A stretch of 64,000 nt of DNA, from assembly GCA_021811585.1 (NCBI GenBank), contig JAJZOG010000014.1, positions 2,577 to 66,576 on the forward strand, written 5' to 3'. Each line of letters opens with the position of its first letter. Within the stretch, counting starts at the first letter, position 1. The notes under the pieces were generated by a model that was not told where the DNA came from, made no database searches, and saw nothing but the letters and a program-made list of their open reading frames with translations. The position numbers were made by a program, and so were the translations under genes. This stretch comes from a bacterium (GTDB taxonomy: Bacteria; Patescibacteriota; Doudnabacteria; UBA920; VMFF01). Positions 1,108 to 49,528 of this stretch are shown piece after piece.

Positions 1108-1563
1108 TTGATGAAAGTTGTACTGGATACCAATGTTTTTATAACCGCATTTAAGGACGAGTATTCTTATCAGAAGCGGATTATAGATGAAATTATCGGC
1201 GGACGGCTTATGGCTTATGCCAACAGGCAAACTTTGCGCGAAAACCACCTTATTTTACGGCGGATGATAAATGACGGGGCGTATTTGAAGGAACTTAACA
1301 ATCTTTTTGCCAAAATAAACGTGGTGGAAAACAGGCGGCAAATTCACGCGGTCTCGGATAAGGAAGATAATAAAATTTTGGAGTCAGCCGTGGAGGCAAG
1401 GGCCGATTTTTTGATTACAGAAGACCGCGCGCTTTTGGAGCTGAATCCGTTCCGAGCGGTTAAAATTGTGGAGCCGGGCGAGTTTTGGGTTATATATGAA
1501 GAAGAAACCGGCGAAGATCCCTGGCAAAAATGGATTAAGTTCGTAAAAGGGAGCGGTAATTAA
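1108..1563 (+). CDS. PIN-domain protein (TIGR00305-like putative VapC-type nuclease)
   Basis: The N-terminal MKVVLDTNVFI plus later acidic residues (DKEDN, ITEDRAL) fit a PIN fold. The start codon is 1 nt after the NYN stop. Confidence 0.65.
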   Translation: MMKVVLDTNVFITAFKDEYSYQKRIIDEIIGGRLMAYANRQTLRENHLILRRMINDGAYLKELNNLFAKINVVENRRQIHAVSDKEDNKILESAVEARADFLITEDRALLELNPFRAVKIVEPGEFWVIYEEETGEDPWQKWIKFVKGSGN

Positions 1564-1600
1564 TAGTTGGTAGGTGGTAGTTGGTAGTTGGTAGTTTATA
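1561..1600. repeat. Heptamer tandem repeat (TTGGTAG)n, copy 1 of a 3-locus family
   Basis: ttggtaggtggtagttggtagttggtag lies directly upstream of the helicase start/RBS. Confidence 0.8.
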
Positions 1601-1620
1601 GTGGAGGGTTAATAAGTGTT

Positions 1621-4600
1621 ATGAAAAATATTGGGAAAAAGCCACTAAAAAAATTCGTGCAAGCATCGGTGCAAGAAGTTGTGCAAGCAGCTGCGCAAGC
1701 AGCCGCGCAAGAATCCGTGCCGCCTGCCCAAGCAGCCATGCACACAACTTTGGCAAACTTGAATGATGCGCAAAAAAAGGCAGTGCTTTTTGGCAGCGGC
1801 CCTTTGCTTATTGTGGCAGGCGCGGGCACTGGCAAAACAACAGTGATAACGCGCAGGATAGCGCACCTGATTTCTTCGGGCGTAAAGTCCGATGAAATTT
1901 TGGCGCTCACTTTCACGGAAAAAGCCGCGGCTGAAATGGAAGAACGCGTGGACATACTTTTGCCTTACGGATATCACGATTTGTGGATTTCAACGTTCCA
2001 TGCCTTTTGCGAACGCATTTTAAAGCAGCACGCCTTGGATATAGGCGTTTCCAACGATTTCCAGCTTTTGGATTCTGTCCAGCAAAAAATTTTAGTGCGG
2101 AAGAATTTGGAAAAATTCGACTTGGATTATTACCGGCCCCTGGGCAATCCTTCGAAATTTATCAATGAGCTTGTGAAATATTTCGGTAAGCTTAAAGACG
2201 AAGAAATTTTTCCGGAAGAATATCTGGAATATGCGCAGAAGATCAAGTTGGATAAGGATAACGCCGAATTTGACGAGGGCGAAGCGCAAAGATTGAATGA
2301 ACTTGCAAATGCCTATCACGTTTATCAAAAATTGCTGCTCGACAACAATGCGCTGGATTTTGGCGACCTTATAAACTACGCGCTGAAGCTTTTCCGCAGG
2401 CGCAAAAAAATTCTTGAATTTTATCGCGCCAAATTCAAATATATTTTGGTAGACGAATTTCAGGACACAAATTTTGCGCAATACGAGCTGATTAAGCTGC
2501 TGGCCGCGCCGAAAAATAATCTGAATGTCGTCGGCGATGACGACCAGAGCATTTATAAATTCCGCGGAGCTTCCATTTCCAACATCATGCAGTTTAAAAA
2601 AGATTTTCCAAGCGCGGCCGAAATAACGCTTGCGGAAAATTATCGTTCCACCCAGGATATTTTGGACCTTGCCTACAAATTCATCCAGCAAAATAATCCC
2701 GAGCGCCTGGAAGCGCAGCTTGGCCTGAGCAAGAAATTAATTTCACCCCTCAAGGGAAAAGGGGAAATAGCCACGCTTTCGGCGCCAACGCTCGCGGATG
2801 AAACCGAGGCGGTTGCAAAGAAAATCGAACAAATCCATAAAGAAACAGGCGCGGATTGGAACGAGTTCGCCGTGCTCGTGCGCGCCAACGACCAGGCCGA
2901 CGCGTTTATTTCCAAATTTTCCGCCAAGGGCATCCCTTACACATTTTTCGCCAACAAAGGCCTGTACAAAAAGGCATTCATCGCCGACCTTATCGCTTAC
3001 ATGCGCCTGATTATTGATCACCATGACAGCGCGAATTTATACAAGGTTCTGTGCATGGAAATTTTTAGAATCAACCATGACGATTTGGCAACCATCCTCC
3101 ATTTTGCCCGCAAAAAAACCCTCTCGCTCTACGAGGCATTGCAGGTTTCCGAAACAATCGGGGGAATAAAAAAAGAAAGCGCGGAAACAATCCGCACTTT
3201 GCTCGGCATGCTTTCCGCGCACGCCTCCCTGGCGGCGCAAAAAAGTGCCACAGAGGTTTTTGTGAAGGCGGTCCACGATTTGCAAATAGGGAACCGGTTG
3301 AACGAAGATACTTTGGAAAATTCGCAGGATAGGAAATTGCTGGAACAATTTTACCGGCGCATGGAAAAGTTTACGGCAGAAAACGCGGATAAATCCCTGA
3401 AAGCATATCTGGATAATTTGGATTTGGAAGAAGACGCCGGGGAAGAGGGCAAAATTGATTTTGATCCGAACCAAGGACCGGAAAGCGTAAAAATTTTGAC
3501 AGTACACTCTTCCAAGGGCTTGGAATTTTCTTATGTTTTTATTGTTAATTTGGTTAAGCAGCGCTTTCCAAGCATGAATAGAAAAGACAGCATTGAAATT
3601 CCCGCGCCGTTGCTTAAGGAGGCCTTGCCCGAAGGGGACGTGCATCTCCAGGAAGAACGCCGCCTTTTTTACGTGGCCATGACTCGTGCCAAGCGCGGTT
3701 TGTATTTTACTTATGCTTTGGATTACGGCGGCGCGCGCACAAAACCGCCTTCGCAATTTTTAATCGAACTCGGGCTTGTCAAAGAGCCGCAAAAAAGCGT
3801 GGAAATTCTGCGCAAAGAGCAGAGCATCGCGAGGCATTACAATTACGATCCGCACGTTTTCATGCCCAACGCGTTTTCGTATACGCAAATTTCCGATTTC
3901 AAACGCTGCCCCATGTCTTTTAAATATAAATATCTGATACATATTCCGGTCGAGGGCAGCGCCAACCAATCTTTTGGAATTACAATTCATAAAACCTTGG
4001 AAGATTTTTTGAAGAGGTATAAGGCAGGCCTGGAAATGACCCAGCTGGAATTGTTCGGCACGGCGCGCGGCAAAAATGACGGCGCGGAGTCGGCTGCCCG
4101 CAAGCTTGCGAGTGAGGAGTTGGCTGCCCGCAAGCCCGTGAACGCGGAATCGGGCGATAAAGTGGCATCTAAAATTTCCGTTGAGGGCGAGCTGTTTAAA
4201 ATTTATGAGAAAAATTGGATTGATGAATGGTATGAAACCAAAAAGCAGAAAGAAGAATTCCGGGAGCGAGGCAAGAAAATTTTGAAGAGTTTTTATGAGG
4301 AATTTGTCCAAAATCCCGTGGCGCCGAAATACATTGAGGAGAAGTTTAATTTGAAATTGGGCGAATATTTTTTTAGCGGCAAAATCGACCGTGCCGATGC
4401 CGAGGCTCAAGGCCTGGATATTGTGGATTATAAAACCGGTGCGAAAAAAGAAGAAACCAAAGAAGGCCGCCGCCAGCTTATGATTTACCAGTGGGCGGCG
4501 CAGGAATTTTTGAAAGAAAAAGTGGTTGGCCTTAAGTATTGGTACTTGTTCGATAATGTTTTTTCCGAAAGTTTTGTGGCCAGCAGCGAAGATATTGCCG

Positions 4601-5339: not shown

Positions 5340-7262
5340 ATGGATGTCAACCAATTTGCTTCGGAAAAAAATTTGAAAGACGCGAGCAGCGGCAATATCG
5401 GCGCTGGCAATGGAAATATAGGCAATGGATCACAGCCGCCATCTCCGAAAATACCGGAAGAACTTGTTTTTAAAGTGATGCCCAAAGGATTTCCATTGCC
5501 AAAAATAAATTTTAAACAACCTGCGCCCGAGCCTGTGGCCATGGCCGCGCCTCATTCAACCGCGCCGGCGCCATCATCATCATTAGCATCGTCGCCATTG
5601 CCTCCGCCGCCTCCACCACCACTGCCGCCACAATCATCAGTGCCGGCGCCACAATCATCGCCGTCACCATTATCAGCGCCACGATCCTCGTCGCTACAAT
5701 CATCACCATCACAATCATTATATGGAATACCCCAAACTTTTGCGAAAAAAGCATCGCCGGTCCCACCTTTAAAATCCTTGCCAACCTCGATGCCGCCCCC
5801 AAGGGCAGCTCCAATTTCACAGGTTCAATTTTCACATGCTTCGCAGGCAGCGCAACCGCAAACTCCGCAGCTCGGGGCCGCTGGCGCACCAGCATCAAAT
5901 AATGCAGGGCAATCTCCTAATGCAGGACAATCTCCGAGTTCACTCGGCCTGCTTCAGAACGATTTTGATGCCGGCCTGTTTCAGAGCAGAATGTCCGGCA
6001 AGAAAATTTTATTTTTTGCCGGCATAGGAATTATTGTTTTGATTCTGCTGGGCAGCGGCATTTATGCCTACACGCGGCTCTCGAAAAAATCTCCGGCTCC
6101 AATTCCCGCGTCCCAAACAGCCGGTTCCGGGGAAATTCCGGGCAGCGGAAATTCACCGGGAGCAGGGTCGTCGCCAAATTCGAGTCAGACCCCGTCCGTA
6201 CAATCTCAAATACCATCTTCTTGGCTGCAAAAATATTTCGGTGAAACTGTCTGCGCAGACCAAAATGTCTGCGGCGATAATGCAGATCCTGATCACGACG
6301 GCCTCACAAATTTGGAAGAATACAAACTCGGCACTGATCCGAACAACCCCGACAGTTCTGGGAGCGGGATTGCGGATGGCGATAAGGTTCATGTTTTTAA
6401 TTTGGATCCGCTCTCGGATCACACCGCGGGCATTTTAAAATACACCGATGCAGGCGATTTAAAATATAAATATAATTCGCGTACGCACCAGCCATTCACA
6501 GCCGAAGATTTGGCGAAAATCGCAGCGAACATAAAACAATATGGGTTGCACGAACCCACAATTATGACCTTAGGACCCGATCTTGTAAATTTTTACACCA
6601 ACGGCGGCGGTGTGGCGGCGGGCGGGAATTCGAGCCCCACAGAAGAGCTTAACCGCGATACCCAGCGCGCGGACACCATCAAACAAATTAGCTTTGCTCT
6701 TATAAAATATCAACAAAGCAACGGCTCGTATCCGGATACAAATGATTTCACGACAATGATAGCAGATATCCAACCCATTCTTTCCGCAGGCCGAGCGATA
6801 AATACAACGGATCCGCTTAACACGCCCCCTTATATTTATGGCTACCAGTCCGTAAATAGCGGCGCGGATTTTAAGCTCTCTTATTTTTCCGAAACGCAGA
6901 ATCAGGAAATTGATATTGATGCCGCGGAAGCCCTGCAGGAGTACAGCAAGGATCAGGAAGACCAGCATGATGCCCAGCGGCAAAACGATTTGCAGCAAAT
7001 TGCAAATGCTTTGGAATTGTACTCGAATGACAATGCCAACCCAGCCGATCCTTCACAAAAGGTTTTTCCTTCAGAAACAAGCTGGAAAGAGGCGATTTCA
7101 AAATATCTTTCGCCAATCCCCGTTGACCCGAAAACAGACCAAGATTACACTTACACAGTTTCCCCGGACAACACACGTTTTGCGATTCAGGCGGTTTTAG
7201 AAGACCCTCCGACAGGGGACAAAGGTTATGTTTGTTCCCAGGATGGGTGTACGTATTACTAG
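5340..7262 (+). CDS. Proline-rich membrane-anchored protein with two pseudopilin-core-like repeats (hypothetical)
   Basis: It has a PPPPPPLPP tract, a single TM (ILFFAGIGIIVLILLGSGIYAYT), DPDHDGLTNLEEYKLGTDPNNPD (calcium-binding-like), and two segments resembling the GspG/pilin core (ADTIKQISFALIKYQQSNGSYP; DLQQIANALELYSNDNANP). Confidence 0.55.
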   Translation: MDVNQFASEKNLKDASSGNIGAGNGNIGNGSQPPSPKIPEELVFKVMPKGFPLPKINFKQPAPEPVAMAAPHSTAPAPSSSLASSPLPPPPPPPLPPQSSVPAPQSSPSPLSAPRSSSLQSSPSQSLYGIPQTFAKKASPVPPLKSLPTSMPPPRAAPISQVQFSHASQAAQPQTPQLGAAGAPASNNAGQSPNAGQSPSSLGLLQNDFDAGLFQSRMSGKKILFFAGIGIIVLILLGSGIYAYTRLSKKSPAPIPASQTAGSGEIPGSGNSPGAGSSPNSSQTPSVQSQIPSSWLQKYFGETVCADQNVCGDNADPDHDGLTNLEEYKLGTDPNNPDSSGSGIADGDKVHVFNLDPLSDHTAGILKYTDAGDLKYKYNSRTHQPFTAEDLAKIAANIKQYGLHEPTIMTLGPDLVNFYTNGGGVAAGGNSSPTEELNRDTQRADTIKQISFALIKYQQSNGSYPDTNDFTTMIADIQPILSAGRAINTTDPLNTPPYIYGYQSVNSGADFKLSYFSETQNQEIDIDAAEALQEYSKDQEDQHDAQRQNDLQQIANALELYSNDNANPADPSQKVFPSETSWKEAISKYLSPIPVDPKTDQDYTYTVSPDNTRFAIQAVLEDPPTGDKGYVCSQDGCTYY

Positions 7263-7441
7263 GGTTACTGGGGTCCAACCCAAACCCCCAACCTAAACCC
7301 CTGATCCAAACCCCCAATCTAAAACCCTAACCTAAAAAATAATGCACTTTTAAAGGACTTTTTCTTAACTTCTTCTTAAATACTTAATAAAAAACCCTGG
7401 ATTAGGGTTTTAGATTGGGGTATTAGGTTGGGGGTTTGGGT
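7263..7441. repeat. Long imperfect inverted repeat built from C-rich/G-rich heptamers, with a G4 motif on the + strand
   Basis: The 5' arm 7272-7330 (ccaaaccccc aacctaaacccc...) is mirrored by the 3' arm 7384-7441 (gggtttta gattggggtattaggttgggggtttgggttgg). Confidence 0.8.
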
Positions 7442-7450
7442 TGGACCCAT

Positions 7451-7819
7451 ATGCAAAATATTATTACTGCAAAAGTTTTAGAATGGCACAAGCATCCAAA
7501 CGCAGACCGTCTGCGAATAGTCAAAGTGGATGCGGGGCCAGAGCATGGAATTATAGAGCCGGTTGTGTGCGGCGCGACGAACTTTGATGTTGGCGATATT
7601 GTGGTTTTGGCGCTGCCCGGCGCGCACATAGCGCAAAATATTCACAGCGAAACGCACGAGCCATTTATTTTAGATAAAGCCGTAATTCGCGGCATCCAAA
7701 GTCAAGGGATGCTTTGTGCTGCCTTTGAATTGGGCCTTAGTAGCGAGCCGGAGCCGATTATTTTAGTACTCCCTTCTGGAACCCTTGTGGGTAGCGAGTT
7801 TCAGCCACAAATGGTATAA
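7451..7819 (+). CDS. Standalone tRNA-binding domain protein (PheT-N-terminal/CsaA/Trbp111-like OB fold)
   Basis: AKVLEWHKHPNADRLRIVKVDAG...VVCGATN...GDIVVLALPGA...QGMLCAAFELGL matches the tRNA_bind (EMAP/Myf) motif set. ATG at 7451. Confidence 0.75.
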   Translation: MQNIITAKVLEWHKHPNADRLRIVKVDAGPEHGIIEPVVCGATNFDVGDIVVLALPGAHIAQNIHSETHEPFILDKAVIRGIQSQGMLCAAFELGLSSEPEPIILVLPSGTLVGSEFQPQMV

Positions 7820-7871: not shown

Positions 7872-9009
7872 ATGAACATCACTATTACCTCGGATAAAGA
7901 AAAGCAACTCAAAGAAACCCTCCAAAGCAAAACAGATTTTCAGAGCCAGCGCATCAGGCGCTATTTAAAGATGCCCGATCTCTCGCGCACGCCCGGCAGT
8001 CCCATTTATGAGCTTGCCCAGCGCATCACCAACCTCCATGAATTTAAAAATTTCGATATCATAGAAGTGCCTGAAATCGTCCCCGCGGACATTAGTTTTG
8101 ACCTTTTCGATTTTCCGCCGGACCATCCGGTGCGCAGCCCTTCGGACACATATTATATTGATCCCCAAAATATTCTCCGCACCCACACAACAGTAATGTG
8201 GTATTACTACCTCATGAATGAGGATATAAAAAAGCGCATCGCCGCAGGCGAGGCGGTTGGTTCGCTTTGCTACGGCAAAGTTTTTCGCAAAGACGAAATT
8301 GATCGCCGGCACATGAATATTTTTCATCAAATGGACGGCTGGTATCTTTGCCGCAAAGATGAAAAAATCATCACAACAACGGATTTGCAAAACGTGCTCG
8401 CAAAAAATCGCGCAAGCGGTTTTCGGTCCCGACATAAAATACCGTTTCAACGAGGATAAATTTCCTTATACTGATCCGTCGCTTGAAATGGAAATTGATA
8501 TTGACGGCAATTGGATAGAGGTCTTGGGCAGCGGCGTTGTTAAGGGGAGCGTTTTGGAAAAATTGGGAGTGGATTCGTCCAAATACAACGGCTGGGCATT
8601 TGGCTTTGGCTTGGAGCGCCTGGCAATTGTGAGTATGGCTTTGCCGGATATCCGTTTATTATGGTCTGAGGACGAGCGTGTTAAGCGCCAGCTAAAGTTG
8701 GGAAAAAAATTCCAGGAAGTGAGCAAATTCCCGCCGATTACGCGCGACATTTCATTTGTGGTCGGCAAGGATTTTGTGCCCAATAATTATTTTGATTTGA
8801 TCCGGGAAATCGGCGGCGATCTTGTGGAAGAAGTGGAGCTTTTGGATAAATATGAAAATGCCGCGAAGTTCGGTCCGGATAAAATCAGTTATACATACCG
8901 CGTGGTTTACCGCAGCCCGGAACGCACGCTTAAGAGTGAAGAAATAGATCCGTTGCAGGACAAACTTTATAACGAAACAAAAACGCAATATCAAGCGGAA
9001 TTGAGATAG
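7872..9009 (+). CDS. pheS: Phenylalanyl-tRNA synthetase alpha-type catalytic core fused to C-terminal FDX-ACB domain; interrupted by a 1-nt frameshift in an A6 run (~8402-8407)
   Basis: Class II motifs are present: HPVRSPSDTYY, LRTHTT, FRKDEIDRRHMNIFHQMDG (frame 0), then FPYTDPSLEMEI...GWAFGFGLERLAI (frame +1). The C-terminus FPPITRDISFVVGKD... is FDX-ACB-like. Assuming A7 instead of A6 gives a continuous ...VLAKKIAQAVFGPD... Confidence 0.75.
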
Positions 9010-14536: not shown

Positions 14537-14986
14537 ATGAAATCCGCCCAAGCAAAAATTACAAAATTATACTCCGGCGTCGAAACGCCGAAATACCACA
14601 GCGAAGAAGCCACCGGTTTTGATATTGCTTCCGCGGAGGACATTATTATAAAACCCGGCGAAACCCCGCTCATTAAAACCGGGCTTATTATTGAAGCGCC
14701 TGAAGGCCACTTTATACTTTTGGCGGCGCGCAGCAGTTTGCCCGTGAAAAAAGGGCTCATGCTTGCCAATGGCGTGGGAATTTTAGATAGGGATTTTTGC
14801 GGGCCAGACGATGAAATAAAAATTCAAGTTTATAATTTCACGAATCGCGACGTTGCGGTTTCAAAAGGCGAGCGCATTGCCCAGGGCATTTGCATCCCGG
14901 TAACCAGGGCGCAATTTCTTGAGGCGGAAAAAATAAAATCAGCTTCCCGCGGCAGCCACGGATCCACAGGGGGATACAATGCATAA
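14537..14986 (+). CDS. dut: dUTP diphosphatase (dUTPase)
   Basis: GFDIAS, ARSSL, GVGILDRDFCG, and C-terminal RGSHGSTGGY match dUTPase motifs 1-5. Confidence 0.9.
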   Translation: MKSAQAKITKLYSGVETPKYHSEEATGFDIASAEDIIIKPGETPLIKTGLIIEAPEGHFILLAARSSLPVKKGLMLANGVGILDRDFCGPDDEIKIQVYNFTNRDVAVSKGERIAQGICIPVTRAQFLEAEKIKSASRGSHGSTGGYNA

Positions 14987-16818: not shown

Positions 16819-16920
16819 CCTCTATCAACTGCCAACTATTAACTACCAACTATTAACTACCAACTACTAACTACTATCTATCAACCTATTAACTACCAAC
16901 TACTATCTACCAACTACCAC
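16819..16920. repeat. Heptamer tandem repeat (CTACCAA / CTATCAA)n, copy 2 (inverse orientation)
   Basis: ...ctatcaactgccaactattaactaccaactattaactaccaactactaactactatctatcaacc... directly upstream of the thyX ATG. Confidence 0.8.
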
Positions 16921-16922
16921 CT

Positions 16923-18641
16923 ATGTTTACAGACGAAGAAAAAAATATTTTACAAAAATATGTAACCTCGGCCGAAGACAATGTTTTCGCGATCAAGGGT
17001 TTAAGTGGAATCGTCGGCGCGGTTTATGCGAGATATTCGCGCGCAAAAGGCGGTTTCCGCGAAACTTTGCTTAAGGAATTTGTCCAAGAGGGAAATATTG
17101 ATCCAAAGCACGCGGACGAATTGATTGCGCGCGTTTTAGTGGCTTACGGCGACGATAGCGTCGGCGAGCTTGAGGGGGCGCATGTTTCCTTTGAGAAGAT
17201 TTCAATTCTTTCGACAAAGGAAATTGAAGACCACCGCATCGGCGGATCGCCGATAGAGCAATCCACGCGCTATGTTTTTTACGATCAAAAAGACGACAGC
17301 GGCAGTTGGTTGTATTACAGAGGCGCGGAGCTTGCCGAAAATCCTAAATTCGGAAAGCAATACTTGCAAACCATGGATTTTATTTTCCAAACATACGCGG
17401 ATTTGGTTGAGCCCATGAGGAATTATTTTATGGCTTTAAAGCCCTTGGAATCGGCTGAATATGATATTAACGGCGACGGCGCCAAGGAAAAATGGTCGGA
17501 TCTTACAAATGAAAAAGACCAGAAAGCTTTTAAAATCACTTATAATGCGGATTTAAGAACAAAGGCCTGCGATACGCTGCGCGCGCTTTTGCCTCTTTCA
17601 ACTTTCACGAATGTCGGCATGTTTGGCAACGGCAGATTTTTTCAGACAGTAATTACGCATTTGCTGAGCCAGGACATGCCTGAATTCAAAGGCATAGGCG
17701 AAAAAGCGCTTGCGGCGCTTTCGGAAGTGATTCCGCAATATGTGCGCCGCGCGAAGAGGAACGAATATGATGCGGGCATAAGGCAGGCAATGTATGGGCT
17801 TGCAGGCGAGGTTTTCGGGGATGAAATTGGAAAGCCGCCCGCCTTGCCGCATTACGAACTTTTGGACAAAGGTGAGCGCTTTATAGTTCGTAAATTTGAT
17901 GAAATCCGCAAATCCAAGCCGCAGGCAGGCGAGGCCGATATTCTAACCGAGGCAATGCAGTATGCCGATGATTTGCGCGAGATGGCTAACATTATTTATC
18001 CTTTTTCGGGGCTTTCCATGAACGCATTGATGGATAAAATTTCGAAAATGAATGATGCGCAAAAAGAAAAAATCATCAAAACATATATTGGCGAACGAAA
18101 AACCAGGCGCGACCGTCCGGGGCGCGGATTGGAAAGCGGCTATGAATATAATTTTGATTTGGTCACGAACTGGGGCGTCTATAAGGATTTGATGCGCCAC
18201 AGAATAAATAGCCAACAGCGGCAATTATTTACGACCAAAATCGGTTTTTACATGCCAGAGGAATTGGTTAATGCCGGGCTTGAGGAAAAAGCGCTCGAAT
18301 GCGTGAGCAAAGCAGGCGCTTTGTACGATTTAATCGCTGAGCAGGATCGCGTTTTGGCGCAGTACGCTGTTTTGCACGGGCATTATGTGCGCTGGAGCAT
18401 GTCCTTTAATGATCGCGAAGCCATTCATATGCTGGAACTGCGTTCTACTCCGCAAGGCCACCCTAATTACCGCCTGGCGGCGCAAGCCATGCATAAATTA
18501 ATTGAGCAACGAAGCAAGTGGCGCGCGGAAATAATGAGTTTCGTTGACCATAATGATTATTATTGGTCGCGGGGAGATTCCGAGGCAAAGCAAAGGGTTA
18601 AAGAAAAAGAGTTGGACGAGCAATTTAAGCCCAAGCCCTAA
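16923..18641 (+). CDS. thyX: FAD-dependent thymidylate synthase ThyX, apparent tandem-duplicated (pseudo-dimeric) form
   Basis: Two ThyX signature-like motifs are present: DHRIGGSPIEQSTRY in the N-terminal half and MRHRINSQQRQ in the C-terminal half. At 572 aa it is about twice the canonical ThyX length. It sits in the dTMP pathway operon. Confidence 0.6.
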   Translation: MFTDEEKNILQKYVTSAEDNVFAIKGLSGIVGAVYARYSRAKGGFRETLLKEFVQEGNIDPKHADELIARVLVAYGDDSVGELEGAHVSFEKISILSTKEIEDHRIGGSPIEQSTRYVFYDQKDDSGSWLYYRGAELAENPKFGKQYLQTMDFIFQTYADLVEPMRNYFMALKPLESAEYDINGDGAKEKWSDLTNEKDQKAFKITYNADLRTKACDTLRALLPLSTFTNVGMFGNGRFFQTVITHLLSQDMPEFKGIGEKALAALSEVIPQYVRRAKRNEYDAGIRQAMYGLAGEVFGDEIGKPPALPHYELLDKGERFIVRKFDEIRKSKPQAGEADILTEAMQYADDLREMANIIYPFSGLSMNALMDKISKMNDAQKEKIIKTYIGERKTRRDRPGRGLESGYEYNFDLVTNWGVYKDLMRHRINSQQRQLFTTKIGFYMPEELVNAGLEEKALECVSKAGALYDLIAEQDRVLAQYAVLHGHYVRWSMSFNDREAIHMLELRSTPQGHPNYRLAAQAMHKLIEQRSKWRAEIMSFVDHNDYYWSRGDSEAKQRVKEKELDEQFKPKP

Positions 18642-21449: not shown

Positions 21450-21498
21450 GCCGCGCGGAATTTGCAAAAAAGTGGGCGCTTGGTATATAATAGAAAAG

Positions 21499-21525
21499 AG
21501 CCAACCTCTCGTTTCGGGAGGTTTT
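21499..21525 (+). terminator. Rho-independent terminator after ftsX
   Basis: ccaacctctcgtttcgggaggtttt hairpin plus T-tract. Confidence 0.6.
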
Positions 21526-21527
21526 AT

Positions 21528-21640
21528 GTTTAGTGATTGATAGTTAGTAGTTAATAGTTGATAGTTGATAGTTAATAGTTAGTAGAACTACCAACTACCA
21601 ACTACCAACTACCAACTACCAACTACCATTTACCGCCTAC
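21528..21640. repeat. Heptamer repeat locus 3: (TAGTTGA/TAGTTAA)n arm followed by (AACTACC)6 arm, forming an imperfect inverted repeat
   Basis: tagttaatagttgatagttgatagttaatagttagtag ... aactaccaactaccaactaccaactaccaactacca. The arms are complementary with G-U wobbles only when read on the minus strand. Directly upstream of rplI. Confidence 0.8.
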
Positions 21641-21648
21641 CAATTTAC

Positions 21649-22095
21649 ATGCGAATTATTTTTCTAAAAGATTGTCCCGGTCAGGGCAGAAAAGGCGAGG
21701 TCAAAGATATTAGCGACGGTTATGCTAAAAATTTTTTGATACCAAAAGGATTTGCAGTGCTCGCCACTCCTTCACTTGTTAGCAAACTGGAAAACGAAAA
21801 ACGCGCACAAGCGGAAAAAGAACGCAGAATTTTGGAAGAGCACGCGAAATTAAAGGATGAATTGGATAGGCGGACATTCACAATTGCCGTGAAAACAGGG
21901 GATAAGGATCAGATTTACGGTTCTGTCCACGAAAAAGACGTCTCAGCGGCAATAAAAGGGAAAACCGGTTATGAATTTGAAAAAAATCAGATTGTTCTTC
22001 CCGGGCACATAAAAGAACTCGGTGAATATACAATAGAAATCCGTCTCGCGGGGAATATTATTGCGCGCCCCAAAATAAAATTAATAAAAATTTAA
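21649..22095 (+). CDS. rplI: 50S ribosomal protein L9
   Basis: MRIIFLKDCPGQGRKGEVKDISDGYAKNFLIPKGFA is the L9 N-domain signature. Confidence 0.9.
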   Translation: MRIIFLKDCPGQGRKGEVKDISDGYAKNFLIPKGFAVLATPSLVSKLENEKRAQAEKERRILEEHAKLKDELDRRTFTIAVKTGDKDQIYGSVHEKDVSAAIKGKTGYEFEKNQIVLPGHIKELGEYTIEIRLAGNIIARPKIKLIKI

Positions 22096-48849: not shown

Positions 48850-48924
48850 TGGCTGGGATGGTAGGATTCGAACCTACGAATGACGGATTCAGAGTCCGTT
48901 GCCTTACCACTTGGCTACATCCCA
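48850..48924 (-). tRNA. tRNA-Gln (anticodon CUG), CCA encoded
   Basis: A 75-nt cloverleaf: UGGGAUG-UA-GCC-AAGUGGUAA-GGC-A-ACGGA-CUCUGAA-UCCGU-CAUUC-GUAGG-UUCGAAU-CCUAC-CAUCCCA-G-CCA. The U1:A72 pair and G73 match the tRNA-Gln identity set. It is near-identical in architecture to E. coli tRNA-Gln. Confidence 0.9.
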
Positions 48925-49528
48925 ATAAATTTATTTTTTGAGTGGCTCGCCTTTATCTGTGGCGGCCTTTCTTTTTGCCGGCCGCATCCGGTTTTTCTGC
49001 TGCGGTTTTTCTGCTGCGGTTTTTGTATGAAGTGCACATATTCCGTGCAAACTTTTGCTTAACCTACCTAATTTCTAATTGATTTTAACAAAAAACCGGA
49101 GTTTTTACAAATGCGAATTGGACTTTTGACTTATTGCACAAAGCCGCGCGGCAGTTAATATATGGCTGATAATCGCATTTTAAAACTCTTTTGCGGGTGA
49201 ATTTTAAAACTCTTCGCAGAGAGTTTTAATTTTGCACAAGCCAAGAGTTTTAACTTTTCACCAGCAGAGAGTTTTAATTTTGCCTCTGCTATTTTTTCAA
49301 CAAATTATAGAAACTTTCAATATGGCTGTCAGTGCCGCAATAAAAAATATGCGACGTAAGGTTTACGCAATATTGCGGATTTTTATGAATGAAATTATAC
49401 TTCGGCAAAAACCAAAATAAAAAACCAAGAACCCCAAGAATAATTATATAAAAGATGTATTTTATGAGACGGAACATTTTGACTTATTATTTTAGTTTTT
49501 CGTTTTACTTATGCCGGGAGCCGCTATT

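Follow-up and report, generated by a model that had tools for sequence, protein, structure and literature searches.

Knowledge of bacterial heptamer repeats dates back to 1990. Those of cyanobacteria, called STRR (short tandemly repeated repetitive) sequences, are reportedly the subject of work by Mazel in 1990 and by Vioque in 1997, and their named units, which we take to be CCCCAGT, TTGGTCA, and CAACAGT, do not include the unit treated here. This unit, TTRRTAG (CTAYYAA on the complementary strand), forms tandem arrays at three loci in a 64,000-nucleotide (nt) stretch of DNA (assembly GCA_021811585.1, contig JAJZOG010000014.1, positions 2,577 to 66,576), which was analyzed as a whole and is called the window below. 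The host is a metagenome-assembled genome (MAG) of Candidatus Doudnabacteria (Patescibacteria), and the homologues of its ThyX and helicase proteins carry Candidatus Doudnabacteria or Patescibacteria labels. A preliminary description of the window had drawn attention to these repeats as possible substrates for slipped-strand mispairing and phase variation, or else as elements resembling repetitive extragenic palindromic (REP) sequences or as an array bound by a protein.

According to passages of two later papers, heptamers are the commonest long simple-sequence repeat (SSR) in many bacteria and are ascribed to polymerase slippage (Mrazek 2007, via PMC4679880 and PMC4692102). Direct repeats of one such unit, TAACTGA, have been described from marine Beggiatoaceae, Cyanobacteria, and Bacteroidetes (MacGregor 2015, PMC4679880). 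Our literature searches on Patescibacteria and the candidate phyla radiation turned up no paper on heptamer or simple-sequence repeats, and a search with the unit sequences gave only matches to SARS-CoV-2 primers. Here, we show that the window holds one heptamer family, that its arrays are recent gains, and that the orientation in which such arrays persist depends on their position relative to the flanking genes.

Results

One heptamer family forms arrays at three intergenic loci

The heptamer or its complement had been said to recur at three loci, and it is present at all of them (1560-1601, 16822-16920, and 21537-21643). Together the loci hold four arrays within 20 kb, all intergenic, with the family consensus CTAYYAA and its complement TTRRTAG. 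A two-unit probe with at most 2 mismatches gave 21 matches in the window versus 0.18 expected from shuffled sequences, and no shuffle reached 21. Tandem Repeats Finder (TRF) returned period 7 at every array, with 4.7, 14.4, 6.6, and 8.3 copies, as well as super-periods of 14 and 21 nt. Beyond the arrays, the window contains exact TTGGTAG once and CTACCAA not at all. When 35 units were compared, positions 1, 2, 3, and 6 of CTAYYAA were constant in 34 to 35 of them, while positions 4 and 5 were C or T at a ratio of about 2:1.

Read as TTRRTAG, the arrays carry stops in each of the three frames; of the four unit variants, three are stop codons in tandem (T+TAA+TAG, T+TGA+TAG, and T+TAG+TAG). The CTAYYAA strand is almost free of G and largely without stop and start codons; the units hold GG at most, with no runs of three or more G. 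Every array lies beside genes, as had been described, and none inside an open reading frame (ORF). The earlier account needs correction in that the three loci differ in orientation relative to the downstream gene.

The loci share the unit and not their surroundings. A comparison of the flanks of the three loci and of an inverted repeat at 7263-7447 gave only matches of 9 to 14 nt with chance-level E-values, which ruled out a miniature inverted-repeat transposable element (MITE) or a REP sequence with conserved ends. A scan of the whole window against Rfam at gathering thresholds found a tRNA-Gln only. The resemblance of TTGGTAG to a tRNA D-loop and of GGTGG to a Chi site was dropped as coincidence, because the other unit variants lack these features.

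Loci 1 and 2 lie between closely spaced genes

Locus 1 (1560-1601, + strand) comprises the six units TTAATAG, TTGGTAG, GTGGTAG, TTGGTAG, TTGGTAG, and TTTATAG and lies between a PIN-domain gene (1111-1563, +; Pfam) and a helicase-nuclease gene. Its first unit overlaps the PIN stop codon, TAA 1561-1563, which is the first stop within the array, and the array thus begins inside a tandem stop, TAA-TAG. Locus 1 alone has a Shine-Dalgarno-like motif (GGAGGG, 1604-1609) between the array and the likely ATG of the downstream gene at 1621, the two features together spanning 1604-1623 (+). The public annotation places the helicase-nuclease start at TTG 1588, within the last TTGGTAG unit, for a protein of 1043 amino acids (aa); judged from the N-termini of relatives, ATG 1621 is likely the better fit. 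With the annotated start inside the array, the repeat misleads start-codon calling.

Locus 2 (16822-16920, +) consists of 14 degenerate CTAYYAA units with an extra C at 16885, for which TRF gave period 7, 14.4 copies, and 72% matches. The array fills the spacer between the thymidylate kinase gene tmk and thyX, starting 6 nt past the tmk stop and ending 2 nt before the thyX ATG at 16923 (thyX, 16923-18641, +, 572 aa, with two Thy1 stretches). The ThyX N-terminus encoded from this ATG, MFTDEEK, is common to relatives. Over about 100 nt, the sense strand of locus 2 is about 30% C with almost no G, and no Shine-Dalgarno motif was found between the array and the thyX ATG. RNA folding left it essentially unfolded (-2.5 kcal/mol over 125 nt), and locus 1 RNA reached -3.9 kcal/mol; neither folded better than shuffled sequences.

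Around loci 1 and 2, the genes follow one another at short distances on one strand, and promoter and terminator scans found no such site in or beside either locus. From this close same-strand spacing and the lack of any promoter- or terminator-like site, we infer that loci 1 and 2 are transcribed spacers within operons. The placement of the arrays in promoter or 5' untranslated region (UTR) positions, as previously proposed, is therefore retained for locus 3, which lies in a 5' UTR, and given up for loci 1 and 2.

Locus 3 is an inverted array pair in the rplI leader

Locus 3 is an inverted pair of arrays spanning 107 bp, in which a left arm of seven TTRRTAG units (21537-21585, +; variants TTGATAG, TTAGTAG, and TTAATAG) is complementary to a right arm of eight CTACCAA-type units, five of them perfect (21588-21643, +), with AA between the two. 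The right arm ends 5 nt before the ATG at 21649 of rplI (ribosomal protein L9, 21649-22095, +), and again there is no Shine-Dalgarno motif between array and start codon. Folding predicted an imperfect hairpin for the + strand RNA, that is, the mRNA (-50 kcal/mol, z -7.3), and a perfect 43-bp hairpin using G-U pairs for the - strand RNA (-70 kcal/mol, z -10.6); the latter is perfect because each difference between the arms becomes a G-U pair on that strand. G-to-A changes restricted to an older left arm would yield the same asymmetry without any antisense function, and for this reason an antisense RNA from the - strand hairpin was not adopted. Relaxed Rfam matches at locus 3 were to generic microRNA-precursor hairpin models, far below cut-offs, and were rejected as meaningless.

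Upstream of the array lies an rplI leader (21462-21530, +) with a promoter-like TTGCAA-18-TATAAT, the sequence AGAAAAGAGCC, a 9-bp hairpin (21503-21523), and a T-run. The only promoter candidate within the array is a weak 9/12 match, and the conserved promoter-like site is the one upstream. The leader is kept in at least 4 Doudnabacteria lineages as TTGCAx-N16-18-TATAAT, (A/G)GAAAAGAGCC, a sequence-variable hairpin, and a T-run (window 21462-21530; related loci L172, 8585-8664; L122, ~6085-6172; and L124, ~14553-14644), and it had no Rfam match. With a terminator-like hairpin directly after the promoter, the leader may be an attenuator or a 5' stabilizer. In relatives, the leader is followed by a segment of about 20 to 30 nt, which bears a Shine-Dalgarno-like sequence in two lineages, and next by the ATG, with no array. 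The window retains the promoter and the hairpin, and the array pair occupies the place of the relatives' short segment.

Start codons without a Shine-Dalgarno motif are not peculiar to these loci. Such motifs precede 12 of the 60 ORFs in the window, compared with a background of 9.5%, and their rarity indicates that initiation without them is normal in this organism.

The arrays are recent gains, and period-7 repeats prevail in related genomes

The tmk-thyX spacer of relatives with 56-80% ThyX identity measures 1 to 30 nt and contains no repeat (L122, L128, L132, L165, L167/168, L171, and L172). In the relatives L174 and L175, the PIN-helicase spacer measures 22 nt and 68 nt, respectively, and has no array. 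No TTRRTAG arrays whatsoever were found in the loci of the closest relatives (L171, L172, L174, L175, and L167/168). Because all three orthologous spacers are array-free in relatives at 70-80% protein identity, this comparison shows the three arrays to be recent gains in this Doudnabacteria lineage. The earlier suggestion that the repeats are lineage-specific holds in this sense for the arrays at these sites; it fails for the unit itself, which occurs across many phyla.

Related Patescibacteria loci totaling 381 kb contained 56 tandem arrays of three or more copies, and 39 of these had a period of 7. The units are genome-specific (for example, TAACGTG, AAAACTC, AATTCAA, and TCCTAAT) and recur at several loci of a genome in both orientations, sometimes as inverted pairs. 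Intergenic positions were taken by 24 of the 39 arrays, whereas only about 11% of the DNA is intergenic (P = 5e-14). In four genomes, heptamer arrays also fall within the reading frame of a glycosyltransferase gene and are translated, at variable sites that are homologous but with a different unit in each genome (L150, 7188-8333, - strand, with homologues in L155, L160, and L148). For example, TGTAACG is read as ...LHVTRYTLHT... and AACTTGT as ...LQVTSYKLQV..., three units (21 nt) making up seven codons. Arrays in frame within genes are as expected from a mutational process filtered by tolerance, and these data point to a general 7-nt mutational bias of this kind.

The persisting orientation follows the flanking genes

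A scan that took a single genome for each species and looked for three TTRRTAG units in a row found at least 120 loci. The carriers, among the matches listed, to which all counts in this section refer, included Cyanobacteria, Bacteroidota, Patescibacteria, Planctomycetota, Ignavibacteria, Clostridia, and other groups. With symmetric ORF rules and distance cut-offs that were picked after the data had been seen, the ATG of an ORF of at least 100 aa lay within 15 nt downstream of 9 of 123 arrays reading CTAYYAA toward it versus 0 of 112 reading TTRRTAG (P = 0.004), and within 40 nt downstream of 24 of 123 versus 5 of 112 (P = 5e-4). Conversely, the stop codon of a long ORF lay within 18 nt upstream of 32 of 123 arrays reading TTRRTAG versus 3 of 112 reading CTAYYAA (P = 2e-7), under the same rules. 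Many start codons beside the C-reading arrays belong to plainly real N-termini, such as those of ArgC-like ORFs and of atpG-like ORFs in two cyanobacteria, and in 4 of 7 Patescibacteria examples the C-reading array ends about 10 nt or less from the ATG.

The window fits the rule: TTRRTAG follows a stop codon at locus 1 and in the left arm of locus 3, and CTAYYAA adjoins start codons at locus 2 and in the right arm of locus 3. Thus, as a statistical rule, the orientation in which an array persists depends on its position relative to the flanking genes. In the two cyanobacteria (L030 and L072), CTACTAA and CTACCAA arrays lie 13 to 14 nt upstream of the orthologous atpG-like ORFs (MPNLKSIRDRIQSVK and MANLKLIRDRIQSVK), which suggests that an array has been held at the same site across cyanobacterial genera.

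The arrays agree between assemblies

In the NCBI MAG GCA_027365855.1, contig DAHXLS010000002.1 (195.5 kb) matches the window except for one base, an extra A at 8402 in the window. Wherever ENA, Logan, and NCBI assemblies spanned the arrays, sequence and copy number equaled those of the window, loci 1 and 2 being identical in three assemblies and locus 3 in two. The arrays are therefore not an artifact of one assembler. Other assemblies encoding identical proteins were confined to this same genome; they probably derive from one sample, and for this reason their agreement on copy number is weak evidence. Logan and ENA contigs end at 21541, within locus 3, and at 7298, 7317, and 7427, inside the hairpin at 7263-7447. 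Breaks at such places are expected from short-read assemblers and are thus uninformative on variation. In an extra ~17.5 kb of the genome (9.5 kb upstream and 8 kb downstream), there were no further arrays, which brings the stretch examined to about 81 kb in total.

Flanking genes and other repeats

Pfam assigned the genes flanking the arrays to PIN, UvrD/PD-(D/E)XK helicase-nuclease, thymidylate kinase, ThyX, FtsX, L9, and CTP synthase. The helicase-nuclease gene contains an in-frame 12-nt tandem repeat at 1656-1720 (CGTGCAAGCAGC, 5.4 copies), which encodes a Q/A-rich low-complexity stretch near the N-terminus. Its nearest homologues have 987 and 999 aa versus 1032 aa in the window and are about 35 to 45 residues shorter overall. 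The 572-aa ThyX, with its two Thy1-domain stretches, looks duplicated or fused, and proteins of such length occur widely among Doudnabacteria and other Patescibacteria (1847 homologues, E<=1e-50). The extra A at 8402 sits in a homopolymer and is absent from the NCBI record (L169) and the Logan contig (L166); it splits pheS into overlapping ORFs (7872-8459 and 8359-9009), whereas the other assemblies encode a single 378-aa PheS.

At 7263-7447, the window has a long inverted repeat built of ~13-nt units (CCAACCYAAACCC, five copies plus complement) around an AT-rich loop. The repeat, whose RNA fold reaches -86.3 kcal/mol (z -8.7), stops 6 nt short of the ATG at 7451 of a tRNA-binding-domain gene, and L174 and L175 lack it in the orthologous spacer. 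At 49170-49290, AAGAGTTTTAA(T/C)TTT occurs in direct and inverted copies (TRF period 24 nt, 2.8 copies) within a 590-bp noncoding region beside the tRNA-Gln gene (48850-48924), and these copies look like an operator or an iteron-type array of putative binding sites. In addition, a perfect 14-nt repeat of 2.6 copies lies at 48989-49024.

Discussion

With moderate confidence, we favor the reading that these arrays are recent, slippage-born, STRR-like repeats that have been filtered by orientation, with CUAYYAA acting as an unstructured leader without a Shine-Dalgarno sequence and with no phase variation. Replication slippage by 7, 14, or 21 nt at a time would give rise to the arrays, which would come to sit in the transcribed spacers of housekeeping operons, as the gene spacing and the absence of expression signals suggest. 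They would persist solely in orientations that the neighboring genes tolerate. At thyX and rplI, the CUAYYAA tract may serve as a translation-initiation leader without a Shine-Dalgarno sequence, one that would have taken the place of a short coupling spacer in the case of thyX and, in the case of rplI, of a segment bearing a Shine-Dalgarno sequence. Slipped-strand mispairing, the process named in the preliminary description, is plausible as the origin of the repeats because 7-nt periodicity dominates related genomes and super-periods of 14 and 21 nt are present; as a phase-variation switch, it does not fit these loci, for the reasons given below.

Several observations weigh against this reading. 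Slippage alone leaves unaccounted for the presence of the same unit at three loci without scattered single copies or shared flanks. The limitation of variation to positions 4 and 5, with CTA and A6 constant in 34 to 35 of 35 units, could mean selection, for instance on a binding site, although amplification of a few variant units could also produce this pattern. The orientation statistics come from crude ORF rules applied to at least 120 loci that were chosen by the repeat pattern itself. Furthermore, base pairing between the CUACCAA arm of locus 3 and its left arm is predicted for the mRNA, so that the right arm would not be a free leader at rplI.

A rival reading is a posttranscriptional regulon, in which the units are mRNA (or DNA) sites for a sequence-specific protein, such as ribosomal protein S1 or a protein of the cold-shock or CsrA type, that coregulates the helicase-nuclease gene, thyX, and rplI. 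A regulon of this kind was proposed for the TAACTGA repeats in Beggiatoaceae, and here, too, arrays adjoin start codons without a Shine-Dalgarno sequence (PMC4679880). One unit stands beside start codons at three loci, with CTA and A6 near-invariant and the YY positions alone variable. The orientation rule among the matches listed and the CTAYYAA arrays 13 to 14 nt upstream of the atpG-like ORFs of two cyanobacteria are also consistent with a shared binding site. However, the arrays are missing from relatives at all three loci, which would make any such regulon very young; one site at the RNA level cannot serve every locus, since their orientations are opposed; and the units differ completely among related genomes. 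We therefore regard coregulation by a common protein as unlikely.

A wider and still more tentative proposal is that TTRRTAG/CTAYYAA arrays, perhaps heptamer arrays generally, form a recurrent, orientation-dependent intergenic cassette in phyla that rarely use Shine-Dalgarno sequences (Patescibacteria, Bacteroidota, and Cyanobacteria). Placed one way, the cassette would stop ribosomes in three frames after a gene; placed the other way, it would act as a landing pad free of G and draw ribosomes or an RNA-binding protein to a start codon that lacks a Shine-Dalgarno sequence. Such a cassette would be selected and would spread by a dedicated mechanism rather than by passive slippage. We put this forward as a speculation that is unlikely as it stands.

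The preliminary description had offered a REP-like element as an alternative. In a scheme of this type, the arrays would be structural RNA or DNA, that is, hairpins that stabilize or process mRNA or terminate transcription, or else cruciforms, with locus 3 a complete element and loci 1 and 2 half-elements. Locus 3 does fold strongly on both strands (-50 and -70 kcal/mol; z -7.3 and -10.6), the window has a second long hairpin built of repeats at 7263-7447 (-86 kcal/mol), and contigs of other assemblies break at both places. Inverted heptamer pairs are known in Xanthomonas and Nostoc and are present in the relatives studied here. On the other hand, the hairpin is confined to locus 3: loci 1 and 2 (-3.9 and -2.5 kcal/mol) do not exceed their shuffles in folding. 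There are no flanks in common among the loci, the unit is not palindromic, the better hairpin of locus 3 lies on the strand without the gene, and the Rfam matches are to sub-threshold generic hairpins only. A REP-type identity is thus improbable for the family.

Phase-variable contingency loci, in which gain or loss of units by slippage alters promoter or leader geometry and switches the downstream genes, were the first suggestion made for these repeats. In its favor, a unit of 7 nt is not divisible by 3, the arrays precede genes, five units in the right arm of locus 3 are perfect, and tandem repeats in 5' UTRs can tune expression in Moraxella, according to a passage in PMC4679880. Against this, no array lies in an ORF or between well-matched -35 and -10 boxes, the weak 9/12 candidate at locus 3 being the only one. 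The tracts are not homogeneous, given the 72% matches of locus 2 and the mixture of three variants in the left arm of locus 3, and most units are degenerate and thus poor substrates for slippage. The flanking genes (helicase-nuclease, thyX, and rplI) have housekeeping functions, and the three assemblies agree on copy number, a weak point since they probably share one sample. Arrays of mostly degenerate units that lie outside ORFs and promoter spacers, beside housekeeping genes, make phase variation very unlikely.

Attenuation by Rho is comparably remote. The C-rich, G-poor CUAYYAA tracts before thyX and rplI would recruit Rho, in the manner of rut sites, if left untranslated, and locus 2, with ~100 nt of unfolded, nearly G-free RNA that is ~30% C, is suited to this. 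An unfolded, C-rich, and G-poor composition is that of the Rho rut sites of Escherichia coli. However, no rho gene was found in the ~81 kb of the genome examined, and premature termination before thyX would be costly. Moreover, cyanobacteria carry many such arrays among the matches listed and, to our knowledge, lack Rho. An assembly or chimera artifact, to which repeats of this kind invite suspicion because they break short-read assemblies (contig ends at 21541, 7298, 7317, and 7427), is scarcely credible given that three assemblies agree on loci 1 and 2 and two on locus 3, and that the flanking genes are intact and ordered as in relatives.

The present case adds a Patescibacterium with a small genome to the hosts of bacterial heptamer repeats. 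It also adds before-and-after comparisons, in which arrays stand in the place of the coupling spacer and the Shine-Dalgarno-bearing leader of essential genes, and an orientation rule across phyla that is directly testable. If the G-free strand does support initiation, the arrays would help to explain translation in phyla where Shine-Dalgarno sequences are seldom used. Otherwise, they mark a 7-nt slippage bias and give a practical warning, since they break assemblies and mislead start-codon calling.

Among known systems, the contingency loci of Neisseria, Haemophilus, and Moraxella share with these arrays short tandem repeats near the 5' ends of genes that are generated by slippage. Their units are mostly of 1 to 5 nt, perfect, placed in ORFs or promoter spacers, and associated with surface or virulence genes, none of which applies here. 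G-poor, CA-rich, unstructured translational enhancers are known from the omega leader of tobacco mosaic virus (TMV) and from CA multimers in E. coli. By analogy with these, CUAYYAA may be viewed as a G-poor, C/A/U-rich, unfolded leader directly before an AUG without a Shine-Dalgarno sequence, although the tract at locus 3, unlike them, is predicted to be paired.

Closer in kind are the GGGAATC and GGGGA(T/C)T repeats of Xanthomonas and Nostoc (Rehm 2015, PMC4692102), which, like those described here, are intergenic heptamers that in part form inverted pairs and that vary in length and sequence between close relatives. Those units have G-runs and can form G-quadruplexes (PMC4692102), whereas TTRRTAG has GG at most. 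The TAACTGA repeats (PMC4679880) resemble the present arrays in ending a few nucleotides before start codons without Shine-Dalgarno sequences, including those of ribosomal protein genes, as do loci 2 (2 nt) and 3 (5 nt). They also have one stop-rich strand, occur in overlapping carrier phyla, and have no predicted RNA structure as direct repeats. They differ in unit, in that their stop-rich strand is the sense strand before start codons, where the stop-free CTAYYAA stands here, and in number, with 169 sets in that genome versus three loci in ours; our arrays are longer and more degenerate (PMC4679880).

The arrays belong to the known class of heptanucleotide long SSRs of the STRR type, although the unit itself differs from the named STRRs. 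As in other bacterial long SSRs of this class, 7-nt units stand in tandem in at least 3 copies, one unit is dispersed over several loci, and the arrays are mainly intergenic and lineage-specific and can also sit inside genes. Cyanobacteria, the home of STRRs, carry TTRRTAG arrays as well, among the matches listed. Long SSRs with units of 5 to 11 nt have been described mostly from large genomes, whereas here three such loci occur within ~81 kb of a small-genome Patescibacterium.

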